NCBI GenBank assembly: GCA_963728735.1
Contig: CAVSLX010000013.1
Span: 79,632 to 143,631 of the forward strand
Source of the DNA: an uncultured Actinomycetes bacterium
Lineage (GTDB): Bacteria > Actinomycetota > UBA4738 > HRBIN12
Length of the DNA stretch: 64,000 nt
Direction: 5' to 3'
The position numbers and the translations under genes were made by a program. Each line of letters begins with the position of its first letter. The stretch's first letter is position 1. The notes under the pieces are model-generated. The model saw only the letters and a program-made list of their open reading frames with translations. It did no database searches and was not told the DNA's origin. Positions 2,797 through 45,499 of this stretch are shown here, piece after piece.

Positions 2797-3237
2797 GTGG
2801 ACCAACGACTCACGCTCGTCACGCTCGGCGTCGCCGACGTCGGGCGGGCGCGCAGCTTCTACGAACATCTCGGCTGGCACGTTGGCCTCGACGTCGAGGA
2901 GACCGTGTTCTTCCAGGCCGGGTGCATGGTCGTGTCGCTCTGGAGCAGGGCGAAGCTCGCCGAGGACGGCGGCCTCACCGACCCCGGCGGTTGGGGTGGC
3001 GTCACCCTGGCGCACAACGTGGGCTCGACCGCCGACGTCGACCGCGTGATCGAGGAGGCACGCGCCGCCGGCGCCCGCATCGGCCGCGAGCCCGGCGAGA
3101 CGTCGTGGGGCGGCTACACCGGCGTCTTCGTCGACCCCGACGGCCACCCCTGGGAGGTCGCGTACAACCCCGGGTTCCCCCTCGGAGCTGACGACTCGAT
3201 CAGGCTGCCGGCGGCCGGCCCTTCCTCCCATGGATGA
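2797..3237 (+). CDS. VOC family (glyoxalase/bleomycin resistance) protein
   Basis: 146 aa with motifs typical of glyoxalase-fold proteins (LGVADVGRARSFYEHLGW..., GVFVDPDGHPWEV). Confidence 0.85.
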   Translation: MDQRLTLVTLGVADVGRARSFYEHLGWHVGLDVEETVFFQAGCMVVSLWSRAKLAEDGGLTDPGGWGGVTLAHNVGSTADVDRVIEEARAAGARIGREPGETSWGGYTGVFVDPDGHPWEVAYNPGFPLGADDSIRLPAAGPSSHG

Positions 3238-6210: not shown

Positions 6211-6615
6211 ATGGACATGAAGCTCGAGGTGGTGGTGGTTCCCGTGTCCGACGTGGACCGGGCGAAGGAGTTCTACGCCGAGAAGTGCGGCTTCAACGTG
6301 GACGTCGACGACACGCCGAACCCGGCGTTCCGGATCGTGCAGCTGACCCCGCCGGGGTCGGGCTGTTCGGTCACGATCGGCACCGGGCTCGCTCACATGG
6401 AGCCCGGGTCGCTCAACGGCTTGCAGCTCACCGTCGACGACGTCGAGAAAGCCCGCACCGAGCTCACCGAGCGCGGCGTCGACGTCAGCCCGGTCCGCCA
6501 CGTCGACACCGAGAAGGGCGAGTGGGTCGACGGACCCGGCGGCCCGTGGAACTCGTTCGTGTTCTTCAACGACCCCGACGGCAACGGATGGACCATCCAG
6601 GAGAAGCCGGCCTAA
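6211..6615 (+). CDS. VOC family (glyoxalase) protein
   Basis: MDMKLEVVVVPVSDVDRAKEFYAEKCGF...FFNDPDGNGWTIQE. GAGGAG Shine-Dalgarno 10 nt upstream of the ATG. Confidence 0.85.
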   Translation: MDMKLEVVVVPVSDVDRAKEFYAEKCGFNVDVDDTPNPAFRIVQLTPPGSGCSVTIGTGLAHMEPGSLNGLQLTVDDVEKARTELTERGVDVSPVRHVDTEKGEWVDGPGGPWNSFVFFNDPDGNGWTIQEKPA

Positions 6616-7212: not shown

Positions 7213-8413
7213 GGTGAAGGAAGAACTGCGCGGGATCGTCGGAGACTTCGGCGCACCGGAGGTCGAGCTCACGACGGTCGTACGGCGCGCCGAGCGTCGC
7301 GCGCTCAGGCGTCGCGTTTCCGCGGGCATCACCGCCGCCGGGATCGTGATGATCTCGGGGGTGTTCCTCGTGCGAGCGTTCGACGGCGACGGTCCTGCCC
7401 TCGTCGGGTCGGGAGGGGTGCCGGGCATCGAGAACGGGCCGATCGCCTTCTCGACCGGGGGGCCACAAGGCGGTACGGCGGAGGGATTCGGGATCGGCAT
7501 CGTCGACCCGAGGAGCGGCGAGTCGGCGACACTCGACGGCTTCCTGAACGCGGGAGCGTGGACGGCTGACGGCTCACGACTCGTGTTCGTTCGTGACCCG
7601 GTCGGGGGTCCGGCCGGTGACATGAGCATCTGGACGGCGCGGAGCGATGGCACCGACCTCCAGCAACTGACCGATGGGGAGGGCGGCGACTACGGGCCGC
7701 GCTGGTCGCCCGACGGAACACGCATCCTCTTCTTCCGCAACGGAACCGGCGGGACGCCGTCGCTGATGGTCATGGACGCCGACGGCAGCGGTGCCCACCC
7801 GATCGCGGGCTCCGGCGAACAGGCGTTCTTCACAGCGGCCTGGTCGCCCGACGGCTCGCGGATCCTCACGGTTCGAGATGAGTACTCGCGCAGCAGGGAG
7901 GGCAACCCCCTCTGGCTCGCGGTGACGGACGCCGACGGCTCGAACGAGCAGGTGCTGGTCCGCGACTACCTGAACCAGCCGACGTGGTCCCCCGACGGAT
8001 CCGAGATCTACTTCGCCGCGCACGGGGCGGTGCAAGCGGTCGACGTCGTGGGTGGCGACGTGCGGTCGGTCCTGTCGGGGATGGATCCCCAGGGCCTGAG
8101 CCTGTTCGCCGTGTCCCCGGACGGGACGAACCTCTTGTTCACGCAGCCGATCGACTTCGAGCGGGGCGAAGAGCTCTGGGTGGCGGGCACCGACGGGAGC
8201 GACCCCCGCCTCGTTGCCGAGGGTCTGCACTGGCGCGAGCCCGAGCCCACGTGGTCGCCCGACGGCACCGCGATCGCGTTCATCCGTGACGGCGACATCT
8301 GGACGGTCGATCTCACGACGGGTGAAGAAACGCAGGTCGTCGGGTCACCCGATCACGAGACCCTCCCGGCGTGGGGCTCGGCGGCGCAGCTGGAGGGCTT
8401 GACAGCTCCATAG
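7196..8413 (+). CDS. anti-sigma factor with TolB-like beta-propeller (PD40/WD40-like repeats)
   Basis: Overlaps the sigma factor stop. One TM segment (ITAAGIVMISGVFLV) is followed by repeated WSPDG(T/S)RI blocks. Confidence 0.75.
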   Translation: MMTMHEVKEELRGIVGDFGAPEVELTTVVRRAERRALRRRVSAGITAAGIVMISGVFLVRAFDGDGPALVGSGGVPGIENGPIAFSTGGPQGGTAEGFGIGIVDPRSGESATLDGFLNAGAWTADGSRLVFVRDPVGGPAGDMSIWTARSDGTDLQQLTDGEGGDYGPRWSPDGTRILFFRNGTGGTPSLMVMDADGSGAHPIAGSGEQAFFTAAWSPDGSRILTVRDEYSRSREGNPLWLAVTDADGSNEQVLVRDYLNQPTWSPDGSEIYFAAHGAVQAVDVVGGDVRSVLSGMDPQGLSLFAVSPDGTNLLFTQPIDFERGEELWVAGTDGSDPRLVAEGLHWREPEPTWSPDGTAIAFIRDGDIWTVDLTTGEETQVVGSPDHETLPAWGSAAQLEGLTAP

Positions 8414-8414
8414 C

Positions 8415-8615
8415 TTGCCCGACGACGCCCGCCGGGCGCGCGTCCTGCTCACCGAGCGAGCGCGCGAGCTCGAGGACCCTCTTGTAGCTGCGGCCCGTGC
8501 GGTGAACCGATCCGCGACCCGTGGCATCGCCCGCGACGAGGTGAAGGACTTCATGCGCACCCTCTCGACGATCGTCGCCAACCTCGAGGGATCGAGCCTG
8601 CTCCCCACGGCGTAG
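8415..8615 (+). CDS. hypothetical small protein (TTG start)
   Basis: 66-aa ORF with strong third-position GC bias. No recognisable domain and only a TTG start. Confidence 0.25.
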   Translation: MPDDARRARVLLTERARELEDPLVAAARAVNRSATRGIARDEVKDFMRTLSTIVANLEGSSLLPTA

Positions 8616-8699
8616 CCCTGAGGGCTGAAACGAGGCCGGGTAGGTTGGAGCCGAGGTGGAGATGGATCCACGGGGGCGAACGAGGAGGAGGGACGCCGG

Positions 8700-9077
8700 A
8701 TGCTGAGGGACATCGACGCGACCGCGATGCTGGCGGTGAAGGACGTCGGGACCGCGAAGAAGTTCTATGAAGAGGCCCTCGGGTTCGAACCCATCGAGAT
8801 CGGCATCGAGGGGATGGTCCGCTACGAGAGCGGTAGCGCGTCGATCCTGGTGTACGAGTCCGAGTACGCGGGCACCAACAAGGCGAACGCGCTGGCGTGG
8901 TCGGTCGGCGACCGGTTCGATGCGATCGTGGGCGACATCCGAGCGAAGGGCGTGACGTTCGAGCACTACGACCTGCCGGGCCTCACGCGCGAGGGCGACG
9001 TGCACGTCGCAGAGAACTTCAAGGGCGTGTGGTTCAAGGACCCCGACGGCAACATCCTGCACATCAACGGCCGATAG
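8700..9077 (+). CDS. VOC family (glyoxalase) protein
   Basis: MLRDIDATAMLAVKDVGTAKKFYEEALGF...WFKDPDGNILHI. Confidence 0.85.
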   Translation: MLRDIDATAMLAVKDVGTAKKFYEEALGFEPIEIGIEGMVRYESGSASILVYESEYAGTNKANALAWSVGDRFDAIVGDIRAKGVTFEHYDLPGLTREGDVHVAENFKGVWFKDPDGNILHINGR

Positions 9078-14610: not shown

Positions 14611-14710
14611 GCTCCCTCCAGCGCCTCCGCAGCCTCGCGCCGGAACGCGATCTGCCCGACCGGGTCGAGTTCGTGTGGCACGGCATCAACGACGAGGAGA
14701 ACCTCCGACG

Positions 14711-15940
14711 CTACGCCCGGCGCGGGAAGATGCAGAACTCGTTGCCCTGAGGATCGGCCATGTTCCGCCAGCGGAACCCGAAGGAATCGTGGGTGTGGCC
14801 GTCGCGCCACCGCCCTCCCAGCCGTTCGATCTCGGCCGTGGCCTCATCGAGATCCTCGATCTCCAGGTCGACGTGCATCCGGTTCTTGCCGTCCTTCGCC
14901 TCGGGGACGCGCTGCAGGATGATCGCGACGCCACCGCGCTCGGAAGCTCCGAGCTCGACGAACTGCCCATCGTTCAAGCGGTCCACGACCTCGACGCCGA
15001 GCAGGGAACACCAGAACGGCGCGATCGCCTCGGGATCCACCGAGTCCAGCACCAGGTTGTCGAGCCGAGCCGGCTTCATGCCCTGCGAACCTCCTTCGTA
15101 CGTGGCGTGATCGGCAAGGGTCGGCGAAGCTCCCCGCGTGAGCGTTCCCGAACGGAACGGCTCGGGGTCGATCTCGACGCGGGTGAAGCCGGCCGAGCGG
15201 ACCGCGTGCTCGATCGCGGCCCTGCCCGACGTGGTGAGCGCCGCCGGTAGCTCGTCGCCGGCGAGCTCGACGCGGCCGGTCTGGCCCAGGTGGCGAACCC
15301 GCAGCTCTCGGAACCCCAGCGCCTTGACGGCTCGCTCGGCCCGATCGACCTGCGCGAGGATGGCGGGGTCGACCTCGGTCCCGAACGGCACTCGCGACGC
15401 CAGACACGGCGACGCCGGCTTGTCCGCGCTCGGAAGCTCGAGCTCGTGGGCGATCGCCCTGACCGCGTCCTTGCCGAGGCCCGCTTCGACGAGCGGATGC
15501 CGCACGCCGTGGTCCGCCGCCGCCCGCAGGCCGGGCCGCCAGTCGCCGAGGTCGTCGGCGTTGGCGCCGGAGAACATCGCGGCGACGCCGCGTGATCGGG
15601 CGAGGATGCCGAGCTGCTCGTACAGCTCGGTCTTGCAGTGATAACAGCGATCCGGGCCGTTGCGCCGGTACCCATCGCGCGCCAGCTCGTCGGTACGAAC
15701 GACCTCGTGGACGATCCCGATCGCACGCGCGACGACGCGGGCGCCGTCGAGCTCGCCGCTCGCGAGGGCGGGCGAGACCGCGGTGACGGCGAGCGCGTTC
15801 GCCCCGAGCACGCGGTGGGCCGCGGCGGCCACGACCGAGGAGTCGACCCCGCCCGAGAACGCGACGACCGCGCCGTCGACGGAACCGACGACGCGCTCGA
15901 GGGTCGCGAGCGCCCGCACGGGATCGGCGTCCGTCGTCAC
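14711..15940 (-). CDS. larE: ATP-dependent sacrificial sulfur transferase LarE fused in frame to a C-terminal VOC/glyoxalase domain
   Basis: PP-loop motif SGGVDSS, CYHCK, and the C-terminal LarE block ELRVRHLGQTGRVEL. There is no stop before the VOC domain (MKPARLDNLVLDSVD...FRWRNMADPQGNEFCIF). GTG start overlaps the larC stop (GTGA). Confidence 0.75.
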   Translation of the reverse strand: MTTDADPVRALATLERVVGSVDGAVVAFSGGVDSSVVAAAAHRVLGANALAVTAVSPALASGELDGARVVARAIGIVHEVVRTDELARDGYRRNGPDRCYHCKTELYEQLGILARSRGVAAMFSGANADDLGDWRPGLRAAADHGVRHPLVEAGLGKDAVRAIAHELELPSADKPASPCLASRVPFGTEVDPAILAQVDRAERAVKALGFRELRVRHLGQTGRVELAGDELPAALTTSGRAAIEHAVRSAGFTRVEIDPEPFRSGTLTRGASPTLADHATYEGGSQGMKPARLDNLVLDSVDPEAIAPFWCSLLGVEVVDRLNDGQFVELGASERGGVAIILQRVPEAKDGKNRMHVDLEIEDLDEATAEIERLGGRWRDGHTHDSFGFRWRNMADPQGNEFCIFPRRA

Positions 15941-17145
15941 GGTCCGGCCGTCTCCGACGTCAGCTCGGCGGCCGCCGCGAGCGCCGCCGTCCACACGGTC
16001 TTGACCGGCTTCCCGACTACGGCGGCGACCGCCGCGCAGTCGTCGTGCTCGGGCGCCACGTTCACCACGCGACCATCGAGATGGCCGAGCTTCACGCGGA
16101 CCGCGTGCCCTTCGACACGCACCTCGCGGATCTCGCGCTCGAGCTCGTAGCGCTGCAGTCGCGACACGCGCACGCCGAGCGTCGAGGTGTGCTCCATCAG
16201 CGAGACGGCCACCGCTCGCTCGGCCTCCGGTCGAGCGAGCGCCGAGACGATCATGCCCGGTCGGCCCTTCTTCATCTGCGCCGGCGCCGTCCACACGTCG
16301 AGCGCGCCGGCAGCGACGCACGCCGCGAGCGCATCGGGGACCAGCTCCGGCGACAGGTCATCGAGGTTCGCCTCGAGGAGCACCACGTCGCCGAGGCCCG
16401 GGCTCGAGGCGTGGGCGTCCTCCGGGGCACCGAGAATCACGCGCACGACGTTCGGACGGCTCGCGAGGTCGGTCGTTCCGGCGCCGTGGCCGACGGCCTC
16501 GATGCGCATCGGCGGGAGCTCGCCGAACGACGAGGACGCCGTCGCCACGATCGCCGCTCCGGTCGGCGTCACGAGCTCGGCTTCGGCCTCGACGCCGACG
16601 AACGGCGCGCCGACGAGCAGCTCGAGCACCGCGGGTCCCGGCGTCGGCATCCGCCCGTGCTCGCCGCGGGCGAGCCCCCGGGCGAACGGAAGCGGCGAGC
16701 ACACGACGCGCTCGATCCCGAGCGCGTCGAGCAGGACGAACGCACCGCACAGGTCCACGATCGTGTCCGCACCGCCGAGCTCGTGGAAGACCACGTCCTC
16801 GGGCGCCACCCCGTGCACCCGCGCCTCGGCTCCGACGAGTCGCTCGAACGCGGTGATCGCCGGCTGCACGACCTCGCCGAGCGCGTTCCGCGCGGCGAGG
16901 AGGCGCTCCCGCAGCTCCGCGACCGCGAACGGCGTCGCGGGCTCGGCACCCACGATCCGGACGTGCGCCGCGTCGATCCCGTGACGACGGACCCGGTCCA
17001 CCTCGACCTTGACCTCGGCGAGCTGCAGCGCCTCGACCGTCGCATGCAGCCGGTCCTGCGGGGCGCCGGCGTCGAGCAGCGCGGCCAGGACCATGTCGCC
17101 CGCCACGCCGGCGACGCAATCGAGGTACGCGACGCGCGTGCTCAC
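15937..17145 (-). CDS. larC: nickel-pincer cofactor biosynthesis protein LarC (nickel insertion, DUF111)
   Basis: N-terminal VAYLDCVAGVAGDMVLAALLDAG. About 402 aa. GTG start overlaps the larB stop. The upstream part of ORF 15937..17577 is junk. Confidence 0.85.
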   Translation of the reverse strand: MSTRVAYLDCVAGVAGDMVLAALLDAGAPQDRLHATVEALQLAEVKVEVDRVRRHGIDAAHVRIVGAEPATPFAVAELRERLLAARNALGEVVQPAITAFERLVGAEARVHGVAPEDVVFHELGGADTIVDLCGAFVLLDALGIERVVCSPLPFARGLARGEHGRMPTPGPAVLELLVGAPFVGVEAEAELVTPTGAAIVATASSSFGELPPMRIEAVGHGAGTTDLASRPNVVRVILGAPEDAHASSPGLGDVVLLEANLDDLSPELVPDALAACVAAGALDVWTAPAQMKKGRPGMIVSALARPEAERAVAVSLMEHTSTLGVRVSRLQRYELEREIREVRVEGHAVRVKLGHLDGRVVNVAPEHDDCAAVAAVVGKPVKTVWTAALAAAAELTSETAGP

Positions 17146-17903
17146 GTCGCCGCGGCCCTCCGTGCGATGCGCGCGGCCACGCTCCCCGCCCCCAGACCGT
17201 CGTCGATCCCCACGACCGCGAGTCCGTCGGCGCACGAGCACAACATCGCGTTGAGCGCGGTCTGCCCGCCGTGGGCCGAGCCGTACCCGACGCTCGTCGG
17301 CACCCCGATCACGGGACAGGCGGCGAGGCCGCCCACGACGCTCGCGAGGGCCCCGTCCATCCCGGCCACGACGACCACGACGTCGGCGCGCTCGAGCTCG
17401 GGGAGCACGGGCGCGAGCCGGTGGATCCCGGCGACCCCGACGTCCTCGTGGACCGTGACGATGGTGCCGAGGAGCTCCGCCCGGATCCTCGCCTCGTGCA
17501 CCACCGGGCCGTCGGAGGTGCCGGCGGACACGATCAGGACCCGGCCACGGCGCTCGAGCGGACGGCGCTCGGCCCACACCGCCCGCGCGAGGTCGTGCTG
17601 CCGGGCGCCGGGCAGCGCCTCGAGCACGGCGTCGCGCATCGCCTCGTCGGCGCGCGTGACGAGCACGCTCGACGCGCCCGCCTCGTCGAGGGCCTTCGCG
17701 ATCGCCGCCGCCTGCGCGGGGGTCTTGCCCTCGCCGAGCACGACCTCGGGCGCGCCCTGCCGGAGCTCGCGATGGGTATCGACCCGAGCGAACCCGAGAT
17801 CGCGGAAGGGCATCCCCGCAAGTTGCCGAGCTGCGTCGGCGGGATCGAGCTCGCGCTCGGCCACGGAGGCGAGGAGGGCCTCGAGGTCGGACCGCGACGT
17901 CAT
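17142..17903 (-). CDS. larB: LarB (PurE-like nicotinic acid adenine dinucleotide carboxylase/hydrolase)
   Basis: PurE-like C-terminal half (GRVLIVSAGTSDGPVV...VVVVVAGMDGALASVVGG...VIGVPTSVGYG), 253 aa. Confidence 0.85.
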   Translation of the reverse strand: MTSRSDLEALLASVAERELDPADAARQLAGMPFRDLGFARVDTHRELRQGAPEVVLGEGKTPAQAAAIAKALDEAGASSVLVTRADEAMRDAVLEALPGARQHDLARAVWAERRPLERRGRVLIVSAGTSDGPVVHEARIRAELLGTIVTVHEDVGVAGIHRLAPVLPELERADVVVVVAGMDGALASVVGGLAACPVIGVPTSVGYGSAHGGQTALNAMLCSCADGLAVVGIDDGLGAGSVAARIARRAAAT

Positions 17904-26215: not shown

Positions 26216-26620
26216 TCAACCTGCGGCTTCGCTGATCTCGAACAGGTGCCCATCGGGATCGCGGAAGAACGCTCGGATCTCCCAGCCGTGGTCGACGGGC
26301 GGGGTCAAGAAGGTCGCGCCCCGTTCCAGGAGGGTCGCGTACGCGCCGCGGCAATCCGGCACCCGGAAGATCATCTCCGTGCTCGCTCGGTCGGGGTCGA
26401 CCGGCGGCGCGAGCGTGACCGTGGGCTTGTCCTCGGTGGGCCCCCCACCCGTCACGAGGAGCAGCCAGCCCCCCAGCAGCTGGAGGACGCACGAGGTGCC
26501 GCCGTACTCGCGGAACACCGTCGCCCCGAGCACACCCGTGTACCAGTCCTTCGAACGTTCGATGTCCGACACGACGAGCAGGTGGGTGAGCTCCATCCCC
26601 TCGCTCGGGAAGTCGACCAT
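26216..26620 (-). CDS. VOC family (glyoxalase) protein
   Basis: MELTHLLVVSDIERSKDWYTGVLGA...FFRDPDGHLFEI. Confidence 0.85.
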   Translation of the reverse strand: MVDFPSEGMELTHLLVVSDIERSKDWYTGVLGATVFREYGGTSCVLQLLGGWLLLVTGGGPTEDKPTVTLAPPVDPDRASTEMIFRVPDCRGAYATLLERGATFLTPPVDHGWEIRAFFRDPDGHLFEISEAAG

Positions 26621-32494: not shown

Positions 32495-34126
32495 CTAGCC
32501 GGTCGGCGACACCGTCGGCGTGGTGCTCACCGTCGGCGCGGTCGAGGCGGTCGCCGAGCTCACCGGTGAGGGCGTCGCGCTCGCGTTCGGGGCCACCGAT
32601 GGCTCCGGCGCGAGCGTCGGCTCCGGCAGGGGAGCGACCGGCACGCTCGAGCCCGGCACCGCGAGGATCGTGCAGCCAGCGTCGACGGAGCCGACGGGTG
32701 CGCACGATGGCGCCGGGTCGTCGCCGAACCAGATCAGGACCGAGAAGTACGCGGCCCGCGCGTCCATCGCGACGGTCTGGGTGAGCTCGATGCGTCCTTC
32801 GCGGTCGCCCGTCGCGCTCACGCGGCCGATCAGGGTCGCCGGCGCCTCTGCCGTCGAGAACGTGCGGAACTCCGCCCACATCGTCTCGTCCGAGGCAACG
32901 TCGTCGGCGAGCACGCTGATCGTCGCCGAGACCGGCAGGCGGGTGCCCAGGAACGAGATCGTCGGGGCCGGCACCGAGGGTGAGCCTCGTCCCGCGAGCA
33001 AGATGGGCGCGACGACGCCGAGCACGATCGCGAGCGCGGCGAGCGTGGCCACCGCGGTCGTCGCCCACTCGGTGAAGACGATCTGTCGCCGCGTCGCCTC
33101 GCGCACCTCGAGGGTGTCGTTCAGGTTGTCCTCGTGGGCCGCCGGGCGGCTCAGCGTGAAGGCGGCGACCGTGGCCGCGGCCGCGATGCAGACGGCCGAT
33201 GCGGCGAGGGTCCACGGCACCTCTCGCGCGACGAAGCCGAGCGCACCGGTGATCCACGCGAGCCCGAGAAGGATCGCCGTCGCCCCGAGTACGCCGGCGA
33301 TCAACCATCGGAGCCTCGTCTCGACTCGGCGGAGGGACTCGAGCGGCGACCAGGTCGAGGACGCGATGTCCTCGTACAGCGCCTCGCGCCCGGCTAGCGG
33401 CACCCCATAGACCTCGACCGGTTCCGGGCCTCGGGGAGCGGAGAACACCAGCCGGTGGGTCACCGGCGGCTCCCCCTCGGCGACCGGGCACTCCACGACG
33501 ACGCGCCAAGGATCGACCTCGTCGTCGCGCGGTGCGGGGACGGTCGGGGTGGTACGGATCGCGTCGGAGAGCTCCTCGACGTCGGTCCCGGCCTCGGCGA
33601 GCTGGGTCGAGAGATCGGCGAGGCGGTAGACGCCCTCGGGCGTGCTCGTCGCACGACGAACCGGCGTCCGCTCGAGGAGGCGCGAGGTCGAGGCGCCCGT
33701 CGAAGGAGCCGCGTCGGCATCGTCTGTCCCTGCCAGCACGACGAGCTCGCTCGCATCGGTGGACCGATAGAGATCGTCGACCACAGGCACGCTGGCACGC
33801 AGATCGTCGATCTCGTAGAGCCCGGGCGCCCGGTCGACGCGGCCCGACGCCATCAGCAAGATCTCGCCGTCGCGGGGTGACGGATCGCCCGTAAGCACCC
33901 GGTTCACGGCCCGCCGACGATCGATCGGATCGCGCTCTCCGAGGGCGGCCACACGGCGCACGACGTCCTCGGTGGTACCCAGGTAGGCGGTGGTCCTCGG
34001 GGTGAGCTGGCGCTCGAGACGCACCTGCGCCGTCACGTTCACGGACTCGAGCGTGTCGCCTCGAGCATGGCTCGGGTGGGCGCACAGGTAGCGGGTCACA
34101 GGGGCTCCTTCGACAACGGGAGCCAC
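32495..34126 (-). CDS. hypothetical membrane protein
   Basis: 543 aa with a balanced composition, two central TM helices, and a Pro/Ala/Ser-rich C-terminus. Confidence 0.55.
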   Translation of the reverse strand: MAPVVEGAPVTRYLCAHPSHARGDTLESVNVTAQVRLERQLTPRTTAYLGTTEDVVRRVAALGERDPIDRRRAVNRVLTGDPSPRDGEILLMASGRVDRAPGLYEIDDLRASVPVVDDLYRSTDASELVVLAGTDDADAAPSTGASTSRLLERTPVRRATSTPEGVYRLADLSTQLAEAGTDVEELSDAIRTTPTVPAPRDDEVDPWRVVVECPVAEGEPPVTHRLVFSAPRGPEPVEVYGVPLAGREALYEDIASSTWSPLESLRRVETRLRWLIAGVLGATAILLGLAWITGALGFVAREVPWTLAASAVCIAAAATVAAFTLSRPAAHEDNLNDTLEVREATRRQIVFTEWATTAVATLAALAIVLGVVAPILLAGRGSPSVPAPTISFLGTRLPVSATISVLADDVASDETMWAEFRTFSTAEAPATLIGRVSATGDREGRIELTQTVAMDARAAYFSVLIWFGDDPAPSCAPVGSVDAGCTILAVPGSSVPVAPLPEPTLAPEPSVAPNASATPSPVSSATASTAPTVSTTPTVSPTG

Positions 34127-34205
34127 ACGCTACCCCCGACCGATGGTTCCCCGCCACCCTCGGGCCACCCTCGGGCCACCCCCTCGGGGAGGCCGAGTGG
34201 GTCGC

Positions 34206-34400
34206 CTACGCGGAGTAGATCGCGGCGATCTCAGCGCCGCGCTGGGTGACCTTCTCGATACGGGTCCACGGGAACAAGACGCGGACGGTCTCCTCGCCAT
34301 CGCGCTCCCGGACCTCGACCCCGAGCGGCGTCATCTTCACGTCGGCGTCGCCGTCGAAAAGCACCTCTTTCCCACCGACGAGATGGACCTCGGTCTTCAT
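34206..34400 (-). CDS. hypothetical small protein
   Basis: 64 aa (MKTEVHLVGGKEVLFDGDADVKMTPLGVEV...). GGGAGGG Shine-Dalgarno 5 nt upstream of the ATG. Confidence 0.4.
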   Translation of the reverse strand: MKTEVHLVGGKEVLFDGDADVKMTPLGVEVRERDGEETVRVLFPWTRIEKVTQRGAEIAAIYSA

Positions 34401-34932
34401 CCGACCCTCCCTGTTGCCGTATCCCTGTTGTCTTCCAGGGCGGCTCATGGGCCGCTCCTCGCCGAGTATGCGCGGGACCGTTCGGTCCGCGCCAGGGCCG
34501 AAGGTCGAGAGGTCGGGAGCGAACGCGGGATCAGGCGGCGACGCGGGGCGGCTGTGGAACCTCCCCGGGAACCGGCTGGTCGGGGTCGGGAGGCACCTCG
34601 TCGGGGCCGGGGCGAGGTTCGGTCGGGTCTGGATTCGGCACCGGCGTCGGCACCGGCCCGGGCTCCGGTATCGGCACGGGGCCAGGCGCAGGACCGGGCT
34701 CCTGCGAGGGGTTCGGTCTCGGCGAGGGGCCCGGGCTCGGCGAAGGCTCGGGCGTTCCCGGTCGCCCAACGTCGCCGGCCATCTCACCACCCGGTCCGCG
34801 GATCACCTCGTCCCGCCGTAGGCGGATCGTCGTCAACACCGGCATCGTCGCCACCTCCGAGCTCATGGGTTGGTCGGGAAGGGGTTTCCCCGTACCCCGG
34901 CGGCGGAAACGTCCGCCAGGTCGACGATCGGC

Positions 34933-35796
34933 TCAGTCGAGAGGCGCGCGGCGCCGGCGCTGGCCCGTTTTGCGCGGAACGGAGCCCGCGACCTTCGCAG
35001 CCGTCGGTCCGCCCGCGGGCGCGCCGACCGGCTCACGCTCGTCGGTGCCTTCGGCCTGGATCGCGTCGGAACCCTCGTGTCGGGCCTCGACCGCCTCGTC
35101 GGCTCGATCGGTCTCGACCGCGTCCTCGGCGGCGGCGGGGACCGGCGAGCGCTTGGACGAGCGTCGGTTCCGCCGGCTGGCGGGCTGCCGCTTGGTCCGG
35201 GCACCCGCGGGCTCCGTCGCGGTTGGGGATCCGTCGCTTCCCGTGGCGGCGGCGGTCGCCGCGGCTGGCTCCACGTCGATGACGATCACGTCGTCGGCCG
35301 CCTCGCCGCTCACGAGCGCCGGATCGGCCTCCTCGATGTCGGGGCGGAGCGGCACCTGCGTGCCGATCGACGCCTCGGCGAGCATCCGTTCGTATTCGAG
35401 CACCCGGTGCCACGGCACGGTCACGCGACGGAACACCGCACGCTCCGATTCGGGCTCGACGCGGTCGGGCACGAGCATCGAGATGCTCCACGGCCCCACC
35501 TCGAAGCGGTCGGCCGGCACGCGATGCTCCTCGGCGCCGCCGTCCTCCGACGTCGTGAGCACGCGCACGAGGAGCTGGCGCAGCCGCGGAAGATCCCCTT
35601 CGCCCGCGTGTTCGACCACCTCCCACTCGTAGGAGACGAGGCGACGCCAGGGGTAGAAGGTCGAGCCGACCGCCACGCCGCGTTCCGAGGTCTCGAGTTC
35701 GGCGAGGGAGAGCTCGCGAACGACGTCGTCGCCGCCCCACACGTCCACGAGGCGGAGACGGACCTTGACGACCTGCGATGAGGGGACGTCGACCAT
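34933..35796 (-). CDS. conserved hypothetical protein with disordered C-terminal tail
   Basis: 287 aa from MVDVPSSQVVKVRL. Globular N-terminal 170 aa, then an acidic, low-complexity tail. The N-terminal part of ORF 34933..36807 is junk. Confidence 0.5.
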   Translation of the reverse strand: MVDVPSSQVVKVRLRLVDVWGGDDVVRELSLAELETSERGVAVGSTFYPWRRLVSYEWEVVEHAGEGDLPRLRQLLVRVLTTSEDGGAEEHRVPADRFEVGPWSISMLVPDRVEPESERAVFRRVTVPWHRVLEYERMLAEASIGTQVPLRPDIEEADPALVSGEAADDVIVIDVEPAAATAAATGSDGSPTATEPAGARTKRQPASRRNRRSSKRSPVPAAAEDAVETDRADEAVEARHEGSDAIQAEGTDEREPVGAPAGGPTAAKVAGSVPRKTGQRRRRAPLD

Positions 35797-35922
35797 GAAC
35801 GACCACGGTACCGCGAGCCGGACCCGGCCGATACCGCCGAACGGCCCCGTCGCCCGGCCCAAGGGCGCGTCGCCTGGCCCCGCCGCCCACTCCCTTCGGA
35901 GCGACGTGTCTATGCTCGATGC

Positions 35923-36801
35923 GTGACGCTGTTCAGCGAGGAGCCCGTCGACGGCCAGCTCGTCGCGCCGGTGCTCGTTGCCGCCTTCGACGGGTGGGTC
36001 GACGCCGCCGGCGCGTCCAGCGCCGCAGTCGATCACCTCGCGCGCGGCGGAGAGCTCGTGGCGGCGTTCGACGGCGACATCTTGTTCGACTACCGCTCCC
36101 GCCGTCCGGTGCTCGACATCGTCGACGGCACCCTGGAGCGTCTCGAATGGCCGGCGTTGTCGATCCACCGGGTCCGCACCCCCGGTCGCGACCTCCTCGT
36201 GCTCCACGGGGCCGAACCGGACTTCCGGTGGCGGGAGCTGGGCGACGATCTGCTCGCGCTCTCGCTGCGCCACGGCGTCGTCGAGTGGGTCAGTCTCGGG
36301 GCGATCCCCGCCGCCGTTCCCCACACGCGTCCCGTGCCGGTGATGGCGACGGCCTCCGCGGAGGGGCTGCTCCACGAGGCCGAGTTCCAAGGGCCGCCGG
36401 GACTGCTCCGCGTCCCGAGCGCATGTCTGTCGGCGGTCGAGCTTGCCGTGTCGGGGTCGGGCGTGCCGGCCACGGGCTTCTATGCCCAGGTCCCGCACTA
36501 CGTCGGGGGGCCGTACGCGGCCGCGACCGCGGCGCTCCTGGACCATCTCGCTCGCCACCTCGGCGTCGAGCTCCCGATGGGGGCGTTCGCGGAGGACGCC
36601 GCGAGCCAGCGTGAGCGGCTCGACATGGCGGTGGAGGCAGACGAGGACGTGCGCGGGATCCTCGAGCAACTCGAGAGCGTCGGCGACGCCGAGCTGCCGA
36701 GCGGCGACGAGCTCGCCGCCGAGATCGAACGGTTCCTGCGGGATCGACCGGGCGACGCGGGGCCCGGCACGATGCCCGGTCCCGGCGGCTCGGGCGCCTG
36801 A
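35923..36801 (+). CDS. PAC2 (proteasome assembly chaperone 2-like) family protein
   Basis: 292 aa resembling actinobacterial PAC2-family proteins (LVAAFDGWVDAAGASSAAV...). Confidence 0.75.
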   Translation: MTLFSEEPVDGQLVAPVLVAAFDGWVDAAGASSAAVDHLARGGELVAAFDGDILFDYRSRRPVLDIVDGTLERLEWPALSIHRVRTPGRDLLVLHGAEPDFRWRELGDDLLALSLRHGVVEWVSLGAIPAAVPHTRPVPVMATASAEGLLHEAEFQGPPGLLRVPSACLSAVELAVSGSGVPATGFYAQVPHYVGGPYAAATAALLDHLARHLGVELPMGAFAEDAASQRERLDMAVEADEDVRGILEQLESVGDAELPSGDELAAEIERFLRDRPGDAGPGTMPGPGGSGA

Positions 36802-38925: not shown

Positions 38926-39801
38926 GTGGGGAGGTTCCGAGCGCTCGCGGTCGGGCTCGCGCTGCTGGTCGCAAGCGCCTGGTCGATCGCGGGCGTTCCG
39001 GGCCTCGCCGGGGCGCCGGGCCTCGCGTGCGCCGCCGAAGGCGGTCCGAGGGCGGCGCTCGTGGTCGACACGGGCTCGACGGTCGTGCGGCACTGCGTCG
39101 CGCTCGACGGGCAGAACGTGAGCGGTACCCACCTGATCGAGCTCGCGGCATCGCAGCACGGGCTCGCGTACGCGCTCGGTTTCGGCGGGCAGGCCGTCTG
39201 CATGCTCGCCGGCGTCGGGCCGACCGGCGGCGACTGCTGGGCGGAGTACCCCGACTACTGGGGGTACTGGCACGGCGACGGCGCGGGTGGATGGGCCTGG
39301 GCGAGCGGAAGCGCGGCGTCGTTCCGTGTCGAGGACGGCGACGTCGAGGGATGGGTCTGGGGGCCGGGCGATACCCCCTCGACGCACGCGCAGCCCCCGC
39401 GCACGAGGTTCGGCGACGTCTGCGCGCCGGTGACCCCTGCGCCGGCACCGTCCTCGGCCCCCTCGCCGAAGCCCTCGCAGGGCCCCGCAGACAACGGATC
39501 GGATCCGGTCGACACCTCGCAGGGATCACCCGACGCGGGAACACCGGGCGCGGGAGTCGAACCCGACGATCGCGAACGCGAACGTGACGACCGGCCGCCG
39601 GGGGAGAGAACGCCGACGCCGACGGATCCGTCCACGCCGGTGACGCTCGCGGGCGACGACCTGCGCGCCACCGGCACCACGGTGCCCGACGGCGGGGGTG
39701 GGCCGCCGGGCGGGCTCGTCGTGGCGCTCGTGGCCGGTCTCGGCCTCGCCGGCGCCGGCTGGCGACGACGCCGAACGCGGAATCACGCGGGCGCTGGATG
39801 A
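38926..39801 (+). CDS. surface-anchored protein with DUF4430-like (transcobalamin beta-domain-like) N-terminal domain
   Basis: Signal peptide, then YWGYWHGDG...FRVEDGDVEGWVWG (DUF4430-like). Pro/Ser-rich linker, C-terminal TM and an RRRR tail. Confidence 0.65.
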   Translation: MGRFRALAVGLALLVASAWSIAGVPGLAGAPGLACAAEGGPRAALVVDTGSTVVRHCVALDGQNVSGTHLIELAASQHGLAYALGFGGQAVCMLAGVGPTGGDCWAEYPDYWGYWHGDGAGGWAWASGSAASFRVEDGDVEGWVWGPGDTPSTHAQPPRTRFGDVCAPVTPAPAPSSAPSPKPSQGPADNGSDPVDTSQGSPDAGTPGAGVEPDDRERERDDRPPGERTPTPTDPSTPVTLAGDDLRATGTTVPDGGGGPPGGLVVALVAGLGLAGAGWRRRRTRNHAGAG

Positions 39802-40667
39802 AGGTGAGGATGGCCCGCACGAGCGAACACCGCGCGACCGACGACGCGTGGCATCCGGGCGCGTGGATCACGTGGTCGACGTGCGCGGGGCTCGTCGCGT
39901 TCGTGACGACCGATCCGGTCTACCTGCTGCTGCTCGTCGCGGTCGCATGGTTCGTGTACGCGTCACACCGGGTCCCCGGTCCCACCGCGGCGTCGTTCCG
40001 CGTCTTCTTGCTCGCCGGCCTCGTCACGATGGCGATCCGCACGACGCTCGTCGTGTTCGGGACGGTCGATATCGGCAACACCGTCTATGCGGCGCTCGAA
40101 GGGCTGCGCCTCGCGACGATCCTCGTCGTGTTCGGCACGTTCAACGCCGTGACGGATCCGTTCGGGGTCGTCCGGCTCGCACCGCGCCGGTTCCACGAGC
40201 CGGCGCTCGCCGCGGCGCTCGCGCTGTCGATCTCGCCACGCACGATCGCCGCCGTGCAGCGCGTCCGTGAAGCGCAGCGCCTGCGCGGGATCCACGTCTC
40301 GCCGATCCGCTCGCTGCCGGCGCTCGCGGTGCCCGTCCTCGAGACGGGCATGGAGGAGGCCGTCACGCTCGCGGAATCGATGGACGCGCGCGGGCACGGT
40401 CGCGGCGCCCGGAGTCGCTACCGCCCGCAGCCCTGGACCGCCGCGGCGCTCGCGGTCGTCGCGAGCGCGGTCGCGGCGCTCGTCGTCTTCCTCGCGGCGG
40501 CGTTCGGCGGCTCGGCCGAGCTCCACATGCCGACGTCACCGCTCGCCTGGCCCGAGGTCGACCTCGTCCTGCTCGCGGCGATCGGCATGCTCGCCGTGCC
40601 CGGCTTCCTCGGGGTGAACGGACGGTCCGCGGTCGTGGCCGCGCATCCCGCGCCGGTCGCGCCATGA
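39798..40667 (+). CDS. energy-coupling factor transporter transmembrane component EcfT (CbiQ family)
   Basis: CbiQ-like helices and conserved Arg-rich coupling region (AAVQRVREAQRLRGI). Confidence 0.8.
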   Translation: MKVRMARTSEHRATDDAWHPGAWITWSTCAGLVAFVTTDPVYLLLLVAVAWFVYASHRVPGPTAASFRVFLLAGLVTMAIRTTLVVFGTVDIGNTVYAALEGLRLATILVVFGTFNAVTDPFGVVRLAPRRFHEPALAAALALSISPRTIAAVQRVREAQRLRGIHVSPIRSLPALAVPVLETGMEEAVTLAESMDARGHGRGARSRYRPQPWTAAALAVVASAVAALVVFLAAAFGGSAELHMPTSPLAWPEVDLVLLAAIGMLAVPGFLGVNGRSAVVAAHPAPVAP

Positions 40668-42266
40668 CCGACGCGCTCCGCTTCGATGCCGTGACGTACG
40701 TGTATCCCGACGGCGTCCGTGCGGCGCTCGACGACGTCCACGCCTCGGTCCCCGAAGGGGCCTTCGCCCTCGCCGTCGGGCCGACCGGCGCCGGCAAGTC
40801 GACGCTGCTTCGCGCCTCGAACGGCCTCGTGCCGCATTTCACCGGAGGGCGTTTCGCCGGTTCGGTCACGGTGGGTGGGCGTGACACGCGGGCACACGCG
40901 CCGCGCGAGCTCGCCGACGTCGTCGCCTTCGTGCCCCAGGATCCCGCGGCGTCGTTCGTCCTCGACCGCGTCGAGGACGAGCTCGCCTACGGGATGGAGA
41001 ACCTCGGCGTCGATCCCGCCCACATGCGACGTCGCGTCGAGGAAGTGCTCGACCTGCTCGACATCACGACGCTGCGCCACCGGAGCGTCCGCGCGATCTC
41101 CGGCGGCGAGCGCCAGCGCGTCGCGATCGCCGCCGCCCTCGCGGCCGGCCCGCGCATCCTCGTCCTCGACGAGCCGACGTCGCAGCTCGATCCGCAGGGA
41201 GCCGAACACGTCATGGCCGCGCTGCAACGGCTCGTCCATGACCACGGCATGACCGTGGTGCTCGCGGAACACCGCCTCGAGCGGGTGGCCGGCTGGGTCG
41301 ATCTCGCGCTCGGCCTCGACGAAGGCCGCGTCACGGCCGGCACCCCCGCCGACGTGATCCACGGGTTCGCGGTCGGACCACCCGTCGCGCGCCTCGGTCG
41401 GCTCGTCGGATGGGAGCCCGTGCCACTCACGGTCCGCGACGCGCGGAACGTCGCACGCCTCCACGCGGCCCCCGGGCCCGCGACGCGCATAGGCGCTCGA
41501 GCCGGCGGCGACGTGATGCTCGCGGCGCAGGGGCTCGGCGTGCGGTTCGGCGAGCTGGCGGCCCTCCGCGGCGTCTCGCTCGAGCTCCGGGAGGGCGAGA
41601 TCGTCGCGCTGATGGGGCGGAACGGCGCCGGTAAGACGACCTTGCTCCGCGCCCTCGCCGGCGTGCTCGAGCCGTCGACCGGGAGCGTGCGGGTCGCGCG
41701 CTCCCCAGGGGTCCGCTCGTCCGGGCGGCACCGCGCCGCGGCCGGGTGTCGACGTGGCCCTGTGCCCCCAGGAGCCCGAGCGCGTCTTGTTCGCCGACTC
41801 CGTCGAGGCGGAGGTGCGCGCCACGCTCGCCGCGCGCGCCGCGCCCGACGCCGCCGCGCCGTGGCTCGAGCGGCTCGGCATCGTCGAACTCGCGGCCCGG
41901 CACCCCCGCGACCTCTCGGCCGGCCAGCGACTGCTCGTCGCGACGGCGGCGATCGCGGCGACCGAGGCGCCGGTCCTCCTGCTCGACGAACCGACCCGGG
42001 GCCTCGACCTCGAGACGAAGGACCGGCTCGCGCGCTTCCTCCGTGCACGAGCGGCCGACGGCGGCGGCACGATCGTCGCGACCCACGACGTCGAGCTCGC
42101 GGCCGCCGTGGCGACGCGGGTCGTGATGCTCGCCGGCGGCGACGTGATCGCCGACGGCGACCCCGCCGCCGTGCTGGGCGACTCCCACGTCTTCGCGCCG
42201 CAGATGACGAAGGTCTTCGGGCCTGGCTGGCTCACCCCCGAGCAGGTCGCGGAGGCGTGGGCGTGA
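40664..42266 (+). CDS. ECF transporter duplicated ATPase (EcfA-EcfA' fusion) with apparent frameshift near 41700-41760
   Basis: Two ABC domains (Walker A GPTGAGKST and GRNGAGKTT; signatures ISGGERQRV and LSAGQRL). The second domain continues in ORF 41754..42266, i.e. a different frame. Confidence 0.7.
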
Positions 42267-43177
42267 GCACGCAGGCGCCCGCCGTTCGTCGGGGCGCGAG
42301 CGTATCCGCATCGGTCGCGCGGGGAACGCACGCCCGCCCCCTCGGCGGACGTTCACGTCTCGGAACCGCCCTGCTGGTCCTGATGAACGTCGTGGGCGCG
42401 CTCGCCTTCGTGTGGCCCTTCGCGGTACCGGCCCTCGCCGGTCGTGAGCGGGGCGATTCCCCCTGGATCCTGGCGTTGCTCCTCGGCTCGCTCGGCGCGC
42501 TCCTGTTCATGGAGCTCGGAAGGGGAGGACTCGGCCCGAAGACGGTCGCGCTCCTCGGCGTGCTCGGCGCGGCCGTCGTCGCGCTGCGGCTCCCGGGATT
42601 CGTCGCCGGCTTCAGCGCGCTGTTCATCCCGGTGCTCGTCGGCGGGAACGCGTTCGGGCCGAGGTTCGGATTCCTGCTCGGGGCCGTCGGCATGTTCGCG
42701 AGCGGCCTGTTCGTCGGGGGCCTCGGGCCGTGGCTGCCGTTCCAGATGGTCGCCGTCGGCTGGGTCGGGGCCGGCGCGGGGCTCCTGCCGAAGGGCTCGT
42801 GGCGGGTGCGGGTCGGCGCGCTCGCGGCGTACGGCTTCGTCACCGGGTACCTGTACGGAGGCGTCATGAACCTGTGGTCCTGGCCGTTCGCCGCGGCCGG
42901 ATCCGCGATCGGCTGGGATCCGAACGGCACGGCCTCGGAGAACCTGCGGCGCTATGCGAGCTACTACGCCGCGACCTCGTTCCTGTGGGACACGTTCAGG
43001 GCGGTGGGGAACGCCGCCCTCGTCCTCGTCCTGGCGCGACCGCTCCTGGGGGCCCTCGACCGAGCCGCGAGGCGGATGCGTTTGGACCTCCGCCCGACGG
43101 GTACCGATCGATCGACACCCCGGTCGACGATGCCAACGGTACGAGGGACCAAGAAGCCAAAGAAGGCCAAAGAGTAG
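42263..43177 (+). CDS. integral membrane protein, putative ECF substrate-capture (S) component
   Basis: GTG start overlaps the ATPase stop (GTGA). 304 aa with six or more TM helices and a Lys-rich C-terminal tail (GTKKPKKAKE). Confidence 0.6.
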   Translation: MSTQAPAVRRGASVSASVARGTHARPLGGRSRLGTALLVLMNVVGALAFVWPFAVPALAGRERGDSPWILALLLGSLGALLFMELGRGGLGPKTVALLGVLGAAVVALRLPGFVAGFSALFIPVLVGGNAFGPRFGFLLGAVGMFASGLFVGGLGPWLPFQMVAVGWVGAGAGLLPKGSWRVRVGALAAYGFVTGYLYGGVMNLWSWPFAAAGSAIGWDPNGTASENLRRYASYYAATSFLWDTFRAVGNAALVLVLARPLLGALDRAARRMRLDLRPTGTDRSTPRSTMPTVRGTKKPKKAKE

Positions 43178-43723: not shown

Positions 43724-44241
43724 GTGCTCGAGCTCGCGATCCTGGGACTGCTCAAGGAGCGCCCCATGCACGGCTACCAGCTCTCCCGTGAGCTGAGCGA
43801 GCGCTCGGGGGCCTTCTGGCGGGTCTCCTACGGGTCGCTGTATCCCTCGCTCCGGCGTCTGGAAAGTGCCGGCGCGGTCGAGGCGACGACGACCGAGAGA
43901 CCGTCGCCCGGAGCAGCGCGCGGGGCAAGGGACGACGCAAGACCGTCTACCGGATCACCGAGACGCGGCGAGGCGCTGTTCCTCGGCTGCTGCAAGAGAC
44001 CCCGCACGAAGGACAGGCCGAGGACGCGCGGTTCCGGGTGCGGTTGGCGTTCTTCCGCTACCTCCCCCCGGAGACCCGCATCCGGCTGATGGAACGGCGT
44101 CGCGGCCTGCTAGGAGCGGCTCGGCGCGTTCACCGACTGCGATCCGCTCGGCGCCGGGCCGACGACGAGTACACGCGCGCGCTGATGGAGCACGGCCGCG
44201 CCGCCACCGAGCCCGACATCGCGTGGCTCGACCGGGTCTGA
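43724..44241 (+). pseudogene. PadR family regulator, frameshifted (N-terminal wHTH in frame 1, C-terminal domain in frame 3)
   Basis: [54 protein letters not shown], then the frame is lost. ...[18 protein letters not shown]...[28 protein letters not shown] continues in a different frame. Confidence 0.6.
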
Positions 44242-44335
44242 TCATGGCCGAGCGCACGCGGCAACGGCATCACCGCCCCCCCGGGGGATCTGGCGTCGCG
44301 CAACGGCGACGCTCCGCAGGAAGGAGCGCACATCA

Positions 44336-45440
44336 TGAGCGAGGTTCGCATCGCGATCGTGGGCGTGGGCAACTGCGCCTCGTCCCTCGTGCAGGGCCTC
44401 GACGTACTACGAGGACGCCGATCCCGAACGCCGACGTCCCCGGGCTGATGCACGTCGAGCTCGGCGGGTACCACATCCGCGACATCGAGGTCGTGGCCGC
44501 GTTCGACGTCGACGCGAAGAAGGTCGGCAAGGACGTCGCCGAGGCCATCTTCACCGAGCCGAACAACACGATCCGGTTCTCCGACGTGCGCGCCGACTGG
44601 GCGTCACGGTCCAGCGCGGCCGCACCCTCGACGGCCTCGGCACCTACTACCGCGAGGTCGTCGACCGAGTCCGACGAGCCCGAGGTGGACGTCGTGCAGG
44701 TGCTGCGCGACACGCGAGGCCGACGTGATGGTGCGCTACCTGCCGGTGGGCTCCGAGCAGGCGGACCGGTACTACGCGCAGTGCGCGATCGACGCGGGCG
44801 TCGCGTTCGTGAACGCCCTCCCGGTGTTCATCGCGAGCGACCCGGCGTGGGCGAAGCGATTCGCCGACGCCCGCGTGCCGATCGTCGGCGACGACATCAA
44901 GAGCCAGGTCGGCGCCACGATCACGCACCGCGTGCTCGCGAAGCTCTTCGAGGACCGTGGCGTGAAGCTCGACCGGACGTACCAGCTGAACTTCGGCGGC
45001 AACATGGACTTCATGAACATGCTGGAGCGCGAGCGGCTCATGTCGAAGAAGATCTCGAAGACGCAGTCGGTCCAGTCCCAGCTGGACGACGCCGCTGCCG
45101 ACAAGGACGACATCCACATCGGCCCCTCCGACCACGTCCCGTGGCTGGAGGACCGCAAGTGGGCGATGATCCGGCTCGAGGGCCGGAACTTCGGCGACGT
45201 CCCCCTCATCGATCGAGATGAAGCTCGAGGTCTGGGACTCGCCGAACTCCGCCGGCGTCATCATCGACGCGGTGCGGTGCGCGAAGATCGCCAAGGACCG
45301 CGGGATCGGCGGGCCCGCTGATCGGGCCGAGCGCCTACTTCATGAAGTGCCCGCCGGTGCAGTTCACCGACGAGATGGCGCGCGAGATGGTCGAGCAGTT
45401 CATCGCGGGCACGGGCGAGGCCGCCAACGCGGACTGGACG
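44336..45440 (+). pseudogene. ino1: inositol-3-phosphate synthase (Ino1), at least six frameshifts
   Basis: Recognisable Ino1 blocks in three alternating frames: [21 protein letters not shown]; [31 protein letters not shown]; [36 protein letters not shown]...[26 protein letters not shown]; [31 protein letters not shown]; [18 protein letters not shown]. Confidence 0.7.
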
Positions 45441-45499
45441 GCGTTCTTCGACGTCACGCCTAGGCGTGAGCTCGCCCGACGGTCGCGGCGACAGCCAGG

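Follow-up and report, generated by a model that had tools for sequence, protein, structure and literature searches.

The stretch of DNA analysed here (the window, 64 kb) carries larB, larC and larE in this order on its minus strand, followed by a small VOC/glyoxalase gene (Table 1). The stop codon of larB (TGA, 17144-17142) overlaps the GTG start of larC, and GTGA overlaps are found at 17145-17142 (larB/larC) and 15940-15937 (larC/larE), in keeping with the translational coupling of the three genes proposed in the original prediction. In the ancestral, or population, state, four cistrons would be translationally coupled via the 4-nt overlaps GTGA, GTGA and ATGA. Scanning for promoters and terminators around the operon returned no promoter and a single terminator-like site, which corresponds to the background rate; this site falls within a gene for an ABC ATPase that precedes the operon.

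Table 1. Features of the lar region (positions in the window)
Feature	Position	Strand	Remarks
larB	17142..17903	-	253 aa; first gene of the operon; matches NF033503 and PF00731 (AIRC)
larC	15937..17145	-	402 aa; single chain with LarC1 and LarC2 domains
larE, extra base removed	15076..15940	-	290 aa; ends in TLTRGLRRPLPITPRTKEVRRA and a stop; TGA 15078-15076 overlaps the VOC ATG
LarE-VOC ORF as it stands	14711..15940	-	409 aa; sequence identical to P0244
Extra base A	15131	-	CGCGGGG[A]GCTTCG; 52 nt upstream of the VOC ATG; absent from four close relatives
VOC Shine-Dalgarno, GAAGGAGG	15090..15097	-	within the larE 3' end (codons ...KEV...); 10 nt before the ATG at 15079
VOC/Glyoxalase_6 gene	14711..15079	-	122 aa, MKPARLD...; matches PF18029; ATGA-coupled to larE in the ancestral reading

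The assignments of LarB, LarC and LarE all held when compared with curated HMMs, each protein scoring above the respective cutoff. The larB product matched NF033503 (LarB) with 243.6 bits (cutoff 175) over profile positions 1-208 of 209, and the PF00731 (AIRC) profile with 39.2 bits. For the larC product, the scores were 400 bits against PF01969 (profile positions 1-374 of 375), 173.6 bits against TIGR00299 (LarC1, cutoff 90) and 136.4 bits against NF052512 (LarC2, cutoff 50). Residues 12-267 encoded by the third ORF matched TIGR00268 (LarE) with 295.2 bits (cutoff 150) over profile positions 4-258 of 259. In the proposed pathway, LarB would carboxylate and hydrolyse NaAD, LarE, here of the CXXC-C type, would make both thiocarboxylates, and LarC would insert nickel in a CTP-dependent manner. 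The locus is an ordinary three-gene NPN-cofactor operon, larBCE, plus a small coupled VOC gene.

Both motifs reported for LarE, SGGVDS and CYHCK, are present in the protein. The PP-loop SGGVDS (residues 29-34) and the cysteine triad CXXC-C (C99, C102 and C179) are invariant in an alignment of 12 sequences. The CXXC-C motif class defines [4Fe-4S]-dependent LarE, and the CXXC-C LarE of Thermotoga maritima, which has an SGGXDS PP-loop and the triad C92, C95 and C172, uses its [4Fe-4S] cluster catalytically (PMC9283937). Based on its triad, LarE of the window is predicted to belong to the same [4Fe-4S]-dependent subclass. The NCBIfam name for the family still reads 'sacrificial'.

The VOC domain (residues 296-405 of the 409-aa ORF) matched PF18029 (Glyoxalase_6) with 89.2 bits (cutoff 23.6) over profile positions 2-106 of 106; the PF00903 profile also matched, with 34.5 bits. 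The VOC cistron has an independent Shine-Dalgarno sequence and ATG, as had been proposed, and GAAGGAGG is invariant in 5 of 5 aligned sequences; only the spacer has to be corrected, from 9 to 10 nt. The best 120 VOC homologues are 118-162 aa in length and all unfused, and hundreds of stand-alone homologues of 118-130 aa share the same starting Met. In its length and full-profile match, the protein resembles the small single-domain VOC/Glyoxalase_6 (PF18029) proteins, but it differs from them in that it reads as the C-terminal domain of LarE, through one extra base.

In the window, the larE frame indeed continues without a stop through a 17-aa linker (ASPTLADHATYEGGSQG) into the VOC domain and ends at 14711. 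The corresponding protein P0244, from an NCBI/ENA contig of 224,953 bp, is alone in the VOC cluster in being fused. We compared this region with that of the close relatives, which are represented by four independent contigs (L002, L085, L086 and L087) with 95-96% nucleotide identity. These are metagenome contigs with names of the k141 type, typical of short-read MEGAHIT assemblies. None of the four has the extra A; larE and the VOC gene are separate genes that overlap by ATGA, and on each contig the latter has its own gene call, of 122 aa. Over about 1.1 kb of the lar region, there is no other non-triplet indel relative to these contigs.

Through the A at 15131, the last ~20 larE codons come to lie in the VOC frame, and the 409-aa ORF results. 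In-silico deletion of this base restored the 290-aa LarE with its own tail, together with the ATGA overlap (15079-15076). The repaired tail agrees with those encoded on the four contigs, where larE ends in TLTRGLRRPLPITPRxKEVxRA and a stop, and it also fits TLTRGLRxPLPI, the consensus for LarE proteins with 70-77% identity. Translation of the LarE tail out of frame accounts for the 17-aa linker. At 71% GC, the chance that a stretch of 17 codons is stop-free is about 0.73, so the open frame across the junction is statistically unremarkable; the same probability holds for an open fusion arising from any +1 insertion in the tail of larE.

The original prediction treated LarE-VOC as a possible fusion architecture to be sought in other genomes. 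We performed such searches, and the fused form occurred in P0244 only. There was no LarE-VOC fusion among 120 LarE matches (248-309 aa), among the best 120 VOC homologues or at 80 genome loci. Employing a junction-spanning query against representatives of 1.84 billion proteins, we again found none (0/150), the sole long match being a dehydrogenase-VOC protein. Two scans of JGI metagenome contigs, in which exact patterns of the junction and of the VOC gene were sought, gave no match. Because the four relatives at 95-96% identity are without the base and no fusion was found elsewhere, the LarE-VOC fusion, as judged from these comparisons, is apparently not an evolved architecture but the product of one extra nucleotide.

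At the site of the insertion, the relatives read GGGG-GCTTC (3 of 4) or GGGG-ACTTC (1 of 4); 15131 is thus a G/A polymorphic position beside a G run, with GGGGAG in the window and GGGGG or GGGGA in the relatives. This pattern is as expected of a consensus error in a mixed population. Signs of similar trouble are found elsewhere in the window. The gene ino1 (~44335-45500) lies in 8 segments in 3 frames, with 7 frame switches, and its stitched product aligns end to end with Ino1 of M. tuberculosis (1GR0, 561 bits). Single-frame Pfam scans had caught ino1 only partly, and it was the alignment of the stitched protein to PDB 1GR0 that revealed the frame switches. An ECF sigma-factor gene (61336-61854) is likewise divided over two frames. 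The broken ino1 and the split sigma-factor gene indicate that the assembly probably has indel errors, although the disruptions of ino1 could in principle be those of a decaying pseudogene instead. The evident frame-switch errors cluster at 44-46.7 kb and ~61.3-61.9 kb, and the lar region is otherwise clean.

With reasonable confidence, we interpret the locus as a larBCE operon with a coupled VOC gene, joined into a pseudo-fusion by the extra A15131, most likely through an assembly or consensus error. The caveat in the original prediction that the fusion might be an artefact is supported by the lack of the extra base in the four relatives. Chimeric ORFs generated by frameshifts in draft and metagenome-assembled genomes share two features with this locus: an indel just upstream of a 4-nt overlap merges cistrons, and other genes on the same contig are broken. 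We can name no difference from them, and the LarE-VOC ORF most likely belongs to this class.

A rather unlikely alternative is that the extra A15131 is a genuine, very recent frameshift in this strain, by which an accidental fusion without selected function arose. LarE would then have exchanged its conserved tail of ~20 residues for the 17-residue linker and the VOC domain, while free VOC protein would also be made from the Shine-Dalgarno sequence and ATG; the catalytic core of LarE (residues 1-270) would be intact, and NPN synthesis would probably continue. The deposited sequence does encode such a product, with the 409-aa P0244 recorded in NCBI/ENA, and no other frame problem is seen in the lar region. 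In addition, the relatives are different strains, 4-5% divergent, so that a lineage-specific mutation is possible. However, both the tail in its old frame and the ATGA overlap are fully preserved, and the event would therefore have to be extremely recent; the window contains further likely indel errors; and the site of the insertion, in a G run, is polymorphic (G/A). We infer that the extra A15131 is probably erroneous and not a true mutation specific to this strain. P0244 as deposited is in all likelihood a chimeric ORF and is unfit as evidence linking VOC proteins to nickel-pincer chemistry. As a practical caution, the source contig carries other broken genes besides the LarE-VOC ORF.

NPN-dependent enzymes were searched for in 40 ORFs of the window, that is, all called ORFs of at least 300 aa apart from one for a histidine kinase and one for a GGDEF-EAL protein, together with the majority of those of 200-300 aa. 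As the original prediction had stated for LarA, none of the 40 matched PF09861; nor was there a match to PF00248 (NphT-like aldo-keto reductase) or an ornithine cyclodeaminase gene among them. In the closest relatives, there is no larA within 10 kb of larBCE. The absence of larA is typical of this clade. Clusters of larBCE without larA were found in ~15% of surveyed genomes (PMC11796402) and have been searched for new NPN enzymes; there are indeed NPN enzymes other than LarA, discovered through their adjacency to larBCE (PMC13524815). The original prediction had drawn attention to the lack of larA, but a 64-kb window says little in this respect, and the class had already been documented in both of these papers. 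The locus resembles other members of the class in having larBCE with no larA among the scanned ORFs, and it differs in that these ORFs include no aldo-keto reductase or ornithine-cyclodeaminase candidate.

The proposal that the VOC protein is a new partner that uses or handles NPN found no support in genome comparisons. No VOC homologue is located within 6 kb on either side of larE at any of 80 other larE loci. When the VOC protein was compared by tblastn with 84 loci, the matches were confined to L002, a near-identical contig, and two VOC loci that lack lar genes, and conserved larE-VOC synteny was rejected on this basis. An unrelated, convergent gene stands at the end of each of the three closest larBCE operons examined, and none of these has a VOC gene. 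A VOC orthologue with 82% identity adjoins an RNase II gene, and no lar gene occurs over 10 kb upstream and 7 kb downstream of it. To judge from these loci, the larE-VOC adjacency is apparently restricted to one species-level lineage. Because there are five VOC paralogues in the 64-kb window, such an adjacency is likely to have arisen by chance.

It is very improbable, in our view, that the LarE-VOC protein, or the VOC gene coupled to larE, is a functional innovation in which the VOC protein binds, uses or handles NPN without LarA. Equally slight is the prospect that a VOC gene was recruited to the lar operon in this Thermoleophilia/Gaiellales-like lineage as a non-LarA binder or user of NPN, with the read-through as a real natural tethering. 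Translational coupling of the VOC gene to larE is seen on five independent contigs from the lineage, the scanned ORFs offer no larA, aldo-keto reductase or ornithine cyclodeaminase, and other non-LarA enzymes have come to light beside larBCE. Against these points stand the restriction to a single lineage, the 80 larE loci without a VOC homologue, the unrelated genes that end the closest operons, the orthologue beside RNase II and the number of VOC paralogues. Moreover, the nearest solved structure, 4lqb (E 1e-5), is that of an uncharacterised protein, and a published screen for co-occurrence with larBCE names no glyoxalase/VOC family in its text (PMC13524815). The VOC gene probably has no role in NPN chemistry. 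If the protein did bind NPN, it would be the third scaffold other than LarA for the cofactor; none of the findings suggests that it does.

Two further explanations of the continuous frame were rejected. A lost stop codon, raised in the original prediction, is not the cause: the TGA is intact at 15078-15076 and still overlaps the VOC ATG as ATGA, and the frame is shifted by one inserted nucleotide, 52 nt upstream of this ATG. Programmed frameshifting was dismissed as well; the relatives need none, and the ORF in the window is simply continuous.

In Lactiplantibacillus plantarum, a programmed frameshift is located between LarC1 and LarC2, whereas LarC of the window is one chain without such a frameshift. 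Like the lar genes of L. plantarum (Desguin, Hausinger and colleagues), those of the window encode full-length LarB, LarC and LarE and lie in one coupled operon. In contrast to L. plantarum, neither larA nor the nickel-transporter genes lar(MN)QO are adjacent, the genes are ordered B-C-E, and LarE is not of the single-Cys sacrificial type. The locus is one more actinobacterial larBCE operon with a LarE of the [4Fe-4S] type by its motif and without an adjacent larA, a class that is well documented.

The assignments of larB, larC and larE in the original prediction were backed by matches to curated HMMs (see the table). GTGA overlaps join larB, larC and a 409-aa ORF, all on the minus strand of a window with a GC content of ~70%. 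As judged from sequence, LarE in this ORF shares the cysteine triad CXXC-C (C99, C102 and C179) with LarE of T. maritima, in which the triad binds a [4Fe-4S] cluster and the enzyme is catalytic, not sacrificial; CXXC-C proteins are the majority type of LarE (PMC9283937). TIGR00268 carries the NCBIfam name 'sacrificial sulfur transferase LarE'. Because the window LarE possesses the triad of the catalytic class, this automatic name is probably misleading.

Features of the lar operon and of other parts of the window
Feature	Position	Strand	Support or remark
larB	17903-17142	-	NF033503, 243.6 bits (cutoff 175)
larC	17145-15937	-	PF01969, 400 bits; LarC1 and LarC2 matches
LarE part of 409-aa ORF	ORF 15940-14711	-	TIGR00268, 295 bits, residues 12-267
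Glyoxalase_6 part of 409-aa ORF	residues 296-405	-	PF18029, 89 bits
LarE with CXXC-C triad	15940-15076	-	
VOC-family gene	2797-3237		
VOC-family gene	6211-6615		
VOC-family gene	8700-9077		
VOC-family gene	14711-15079		
VOC-family gene	26216-26620		
Remnant of convergent gene	14623-14750	+	~40 aa
ECF-type transporter	39798-43177	+	CbiQ-like T component at 39798-40667
ino1	about 44335-45500	+	
MFS-type transporter-like gene	45475-47140	+	
ECF sigma-factor gene, split	61336-61854	-	region 4: PF08281, 53 bits
ECF sigma-factor paralogue, intact	62873-63379		

As predicted, the frame of LarE remains open into the VOC domain, and a Shine-Dalgarno sequence, GAAGGAGG (15097-15090), precedes an internal ATG (15079); the spacer, however, is 10 nt rather than 9 nt. 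In alignment with the window protein, the LarE tails of homologues take the form LRxPLPIxxV and end ~10 residues past the conserved TLTRG, right after which the window LarE departs from them. At the junction, the window DNA reads CGCGGGGAGCTTCG. In the four metagenome contigs closest to it (L002, L085, L086 and L087), this stretch is CGCGGGG-GCTTC in three and CACGGGG-ACTTC in the other; the window has one base more, an A at 15131. LarE without this A is 290 aa long and ends with TLTRGLRRPLPITPRTKEVRRA before the stop codon, in agreement with the relatives' TLTRGL[R/H]RPLPITP..KEV.RA and stop, and the TGA of the repaired larE overlaps the ATG of the VOC gene (ATGA). Since removal of A15131 restores both the tail and the overlap, the supposed 17-aa domain linker results from out-of-frame translation of the LarE tail, and the Shine-Dalgarno sequence and ATG called 'internal' belong, as normal start signals, to an independent fourth cistron. 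At the GC content of the window, a +1 insertion anywhere in the larE tail gives an open fusion in ~3 of 4 cases. In L002, a 12-nt tandem duplication in the larE tail (GCCACGTACGAA twice, ~695-718) adds PRTK to the protein; the tail is therefore length-variable in the population.

None of the best 120 LarE homologues (248-309 aa, identity up to 78%) carries a VOC domain, and the best 120 VOC homologues, 118-162 aa long, are without exception stand-alone and share the same start Met. The 90%-identity cluster of the best VOC match contains five members. Four, of 122 aa, are encoded on the short metagenome contigs; the fifth, the deposited protein P0244 (409 aa), is identical to the window ORF and comes from a 224,953-bp NCBI/ENA contig, evidently the window's own source. 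On all four short contigs (DNA identity to the window 95-96%), larE lies directly upstream of the VOC gene and ends 4 nt into it. Searching 1.84 billion cluster representatives with a junction-spanning query (the 87 C-terminal LarE residues and the VOC domain), we found no LarE-VOC fusion: the matches were VOC or tandem-VOC proteins, apart from C-terminal pieces of LarE and a single protein of 400 aa in which a 3-hydroxyisobutyrate-dehydrogenase-like enzyme is joined to Glyoxalase_6. A fused LarE-VOC protein as a recurring architecture was thus absent from the best 120 homologues of either part and from the junction-query matches. Whether artefact or real mutation, LarE-VOC is no evolved architecture.

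The original observation stands, but its interpretation does so only in part; the fusion is made by a single-base frameshift. On circumstantial evidence, the extra A is probably an assembly error. It lies beside a G run at a G/A polymorphic position and resembles both alleles written in succession. In ino1, the reading frame hops 7 times among all three frames (8 in-frame pieces); the stitched product aligns along its full length with the inositol-3-phosphate synthase of M. tuberculosis (1GR0, 561 bits, residues 14-367), and these switches are most likely uncorrected assembly indel errors. Composition-based frame segmentation placed a cluster of same-strand switches at 43986-46710, next gene included. 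An ECF sigma-factor gene is also split, its regions 2 and 4 lying in different frames. The four contigs lacking the extra base bear names of the k141 type that MEGAHIT typically gives, which suggests short-read assemblies. A real but accidental, recent and strain-specific frameshift would fit the 4-5% difference between the window and these relatives, and the frame errors of the window cluster elsewhere, the lar region being otherwise clean; against the points listed, we consider it unlikely.

Besides the probable assembly error at A15131, other irregularities were seen. The MFS-type transporter-like gene downstream of ino1 shows more same-strand frame switches and appears to belong to the same low-quality stretch; the ECF sigma factor has an intact paralogue. 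In L001 (a 1.1-Mb ENA/NCBI contig, LarE 75% identical), larB (8043-8824) is called as two ORFs of 130 aa and 128 aa, which suggests a frameshift in that assembly. L085 (600-1823) and L086 (862-1752) contain a convergent gene of ~407 aa, without a Pfam match, overlapping the VOC stop by 40 nt. The window retains a remnant of this gene with a 618-nt internal deletion, and its homology to the relatives ends at ~14623, where the pirin gene region starts. There is a rearrangement or misjoin directly after the window VOC gene.

The VOC domain had been proposed to use or handle the nickel-pincer cofactor (NPN). The best genome matches of LarE were from Gaiellales, Thermoleophilia and other Actinomycetota MAGs (identity <=71%), and 0 of 80 genome loci matched the query past ~residue 306. 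In tblastn against 84 loci, the VOC protein matched only L002 (near-identical) and two contigs with an 82%-identical VOC gene; on both, that gene adjoins an RNase II gene, and lar genes are absent from the 10 kb upstream and the 7 kb downstream. The three closest long-context operons (L001, L088 and L090; LarE 72-77% identical) consist of larB-larC-larE only, joined by 4-nt overlaps; next comes an unrelated gene in convergent orientation, and in none does a VOC gene abut larE. The sole glyoxalase-family gene tabulated for these contigs is a 90-aa PF00903 ORF in L001, on the opposite strand ~7.4 kb from larE. The nearest solved structure to the VOC protein is that of an uncharacterised protein. 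VOC density in the window, five genes in 64 kb, is unusually high, so a chance larE-VOC adjacency would be unremarkable. Taken together, the locus, operon, structure and paralogue comparisons indicate an adjacency that is recent and lineage-restricted, with no comparative support for a functional link.

The reported lack of larA, encoding the NPN-dependent racemase/epimerase, was borne out for the ORFs scanned: of these 40, from a window that covers 64 kb of the genome, none was LarA-like (PF09861), AKR (PF00248) or ornithine cyclodeaminase. Similarly, larA was found within 10 kb of larBCE in none of L001, L088 and L090. About 15% of surveyed genomes have larB, larC and larE but no homologue of larA (PMC11796402), and two kinds of enzyme, the AKR-fold NphT family and an NPAD-dependent ornithine cyclodeaminase, have come from gene-neighbourhood mining of such genomes (PMC13524815). 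The combination of larBCE with a missing larA is therefore already known as a category. The window operon resembles these genomes in having larBCE, with no larA among the scanned ORFs, and the locus is a routine addition to known larBCE operons.

The four cistrons are probably co-transcribed, possibly together with the upstream same-strand PadR, ABC ATPase and FtsX permease genes, and their translation would be coupled through the overlaps. From their families, LarB, LarE and LarC are expected to supply NPN to a client enzyme whose gene lies elsewhere. The VOC protein would be made from its own Shine-Dalgarno sequence and ATG regardless of the base at 15131; should that base prove real, part of the VOC protein would also be tethered to LarE, leaving the LarE catalytic core unaffected.

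In L088 (LarE 77% identical), a lactate permease gene (PF02652, 15054-16712) lies ~4 kb beyond larE, which weakly hints that NPN in this clade has a hydroxy-acid context. Elsewhere in the window, the coding strand of 34059-36800 is ambiguous: a 624-aa minus-strand ORF without a Pfam match overlaps a plus-strand region with an equal codon-position GC signal. The ECF-type transporter, 23 kb from the lar operon, comprises the T component and then an 837-aa ORF with two ABC ATPase domains and an ECF S-component domain.
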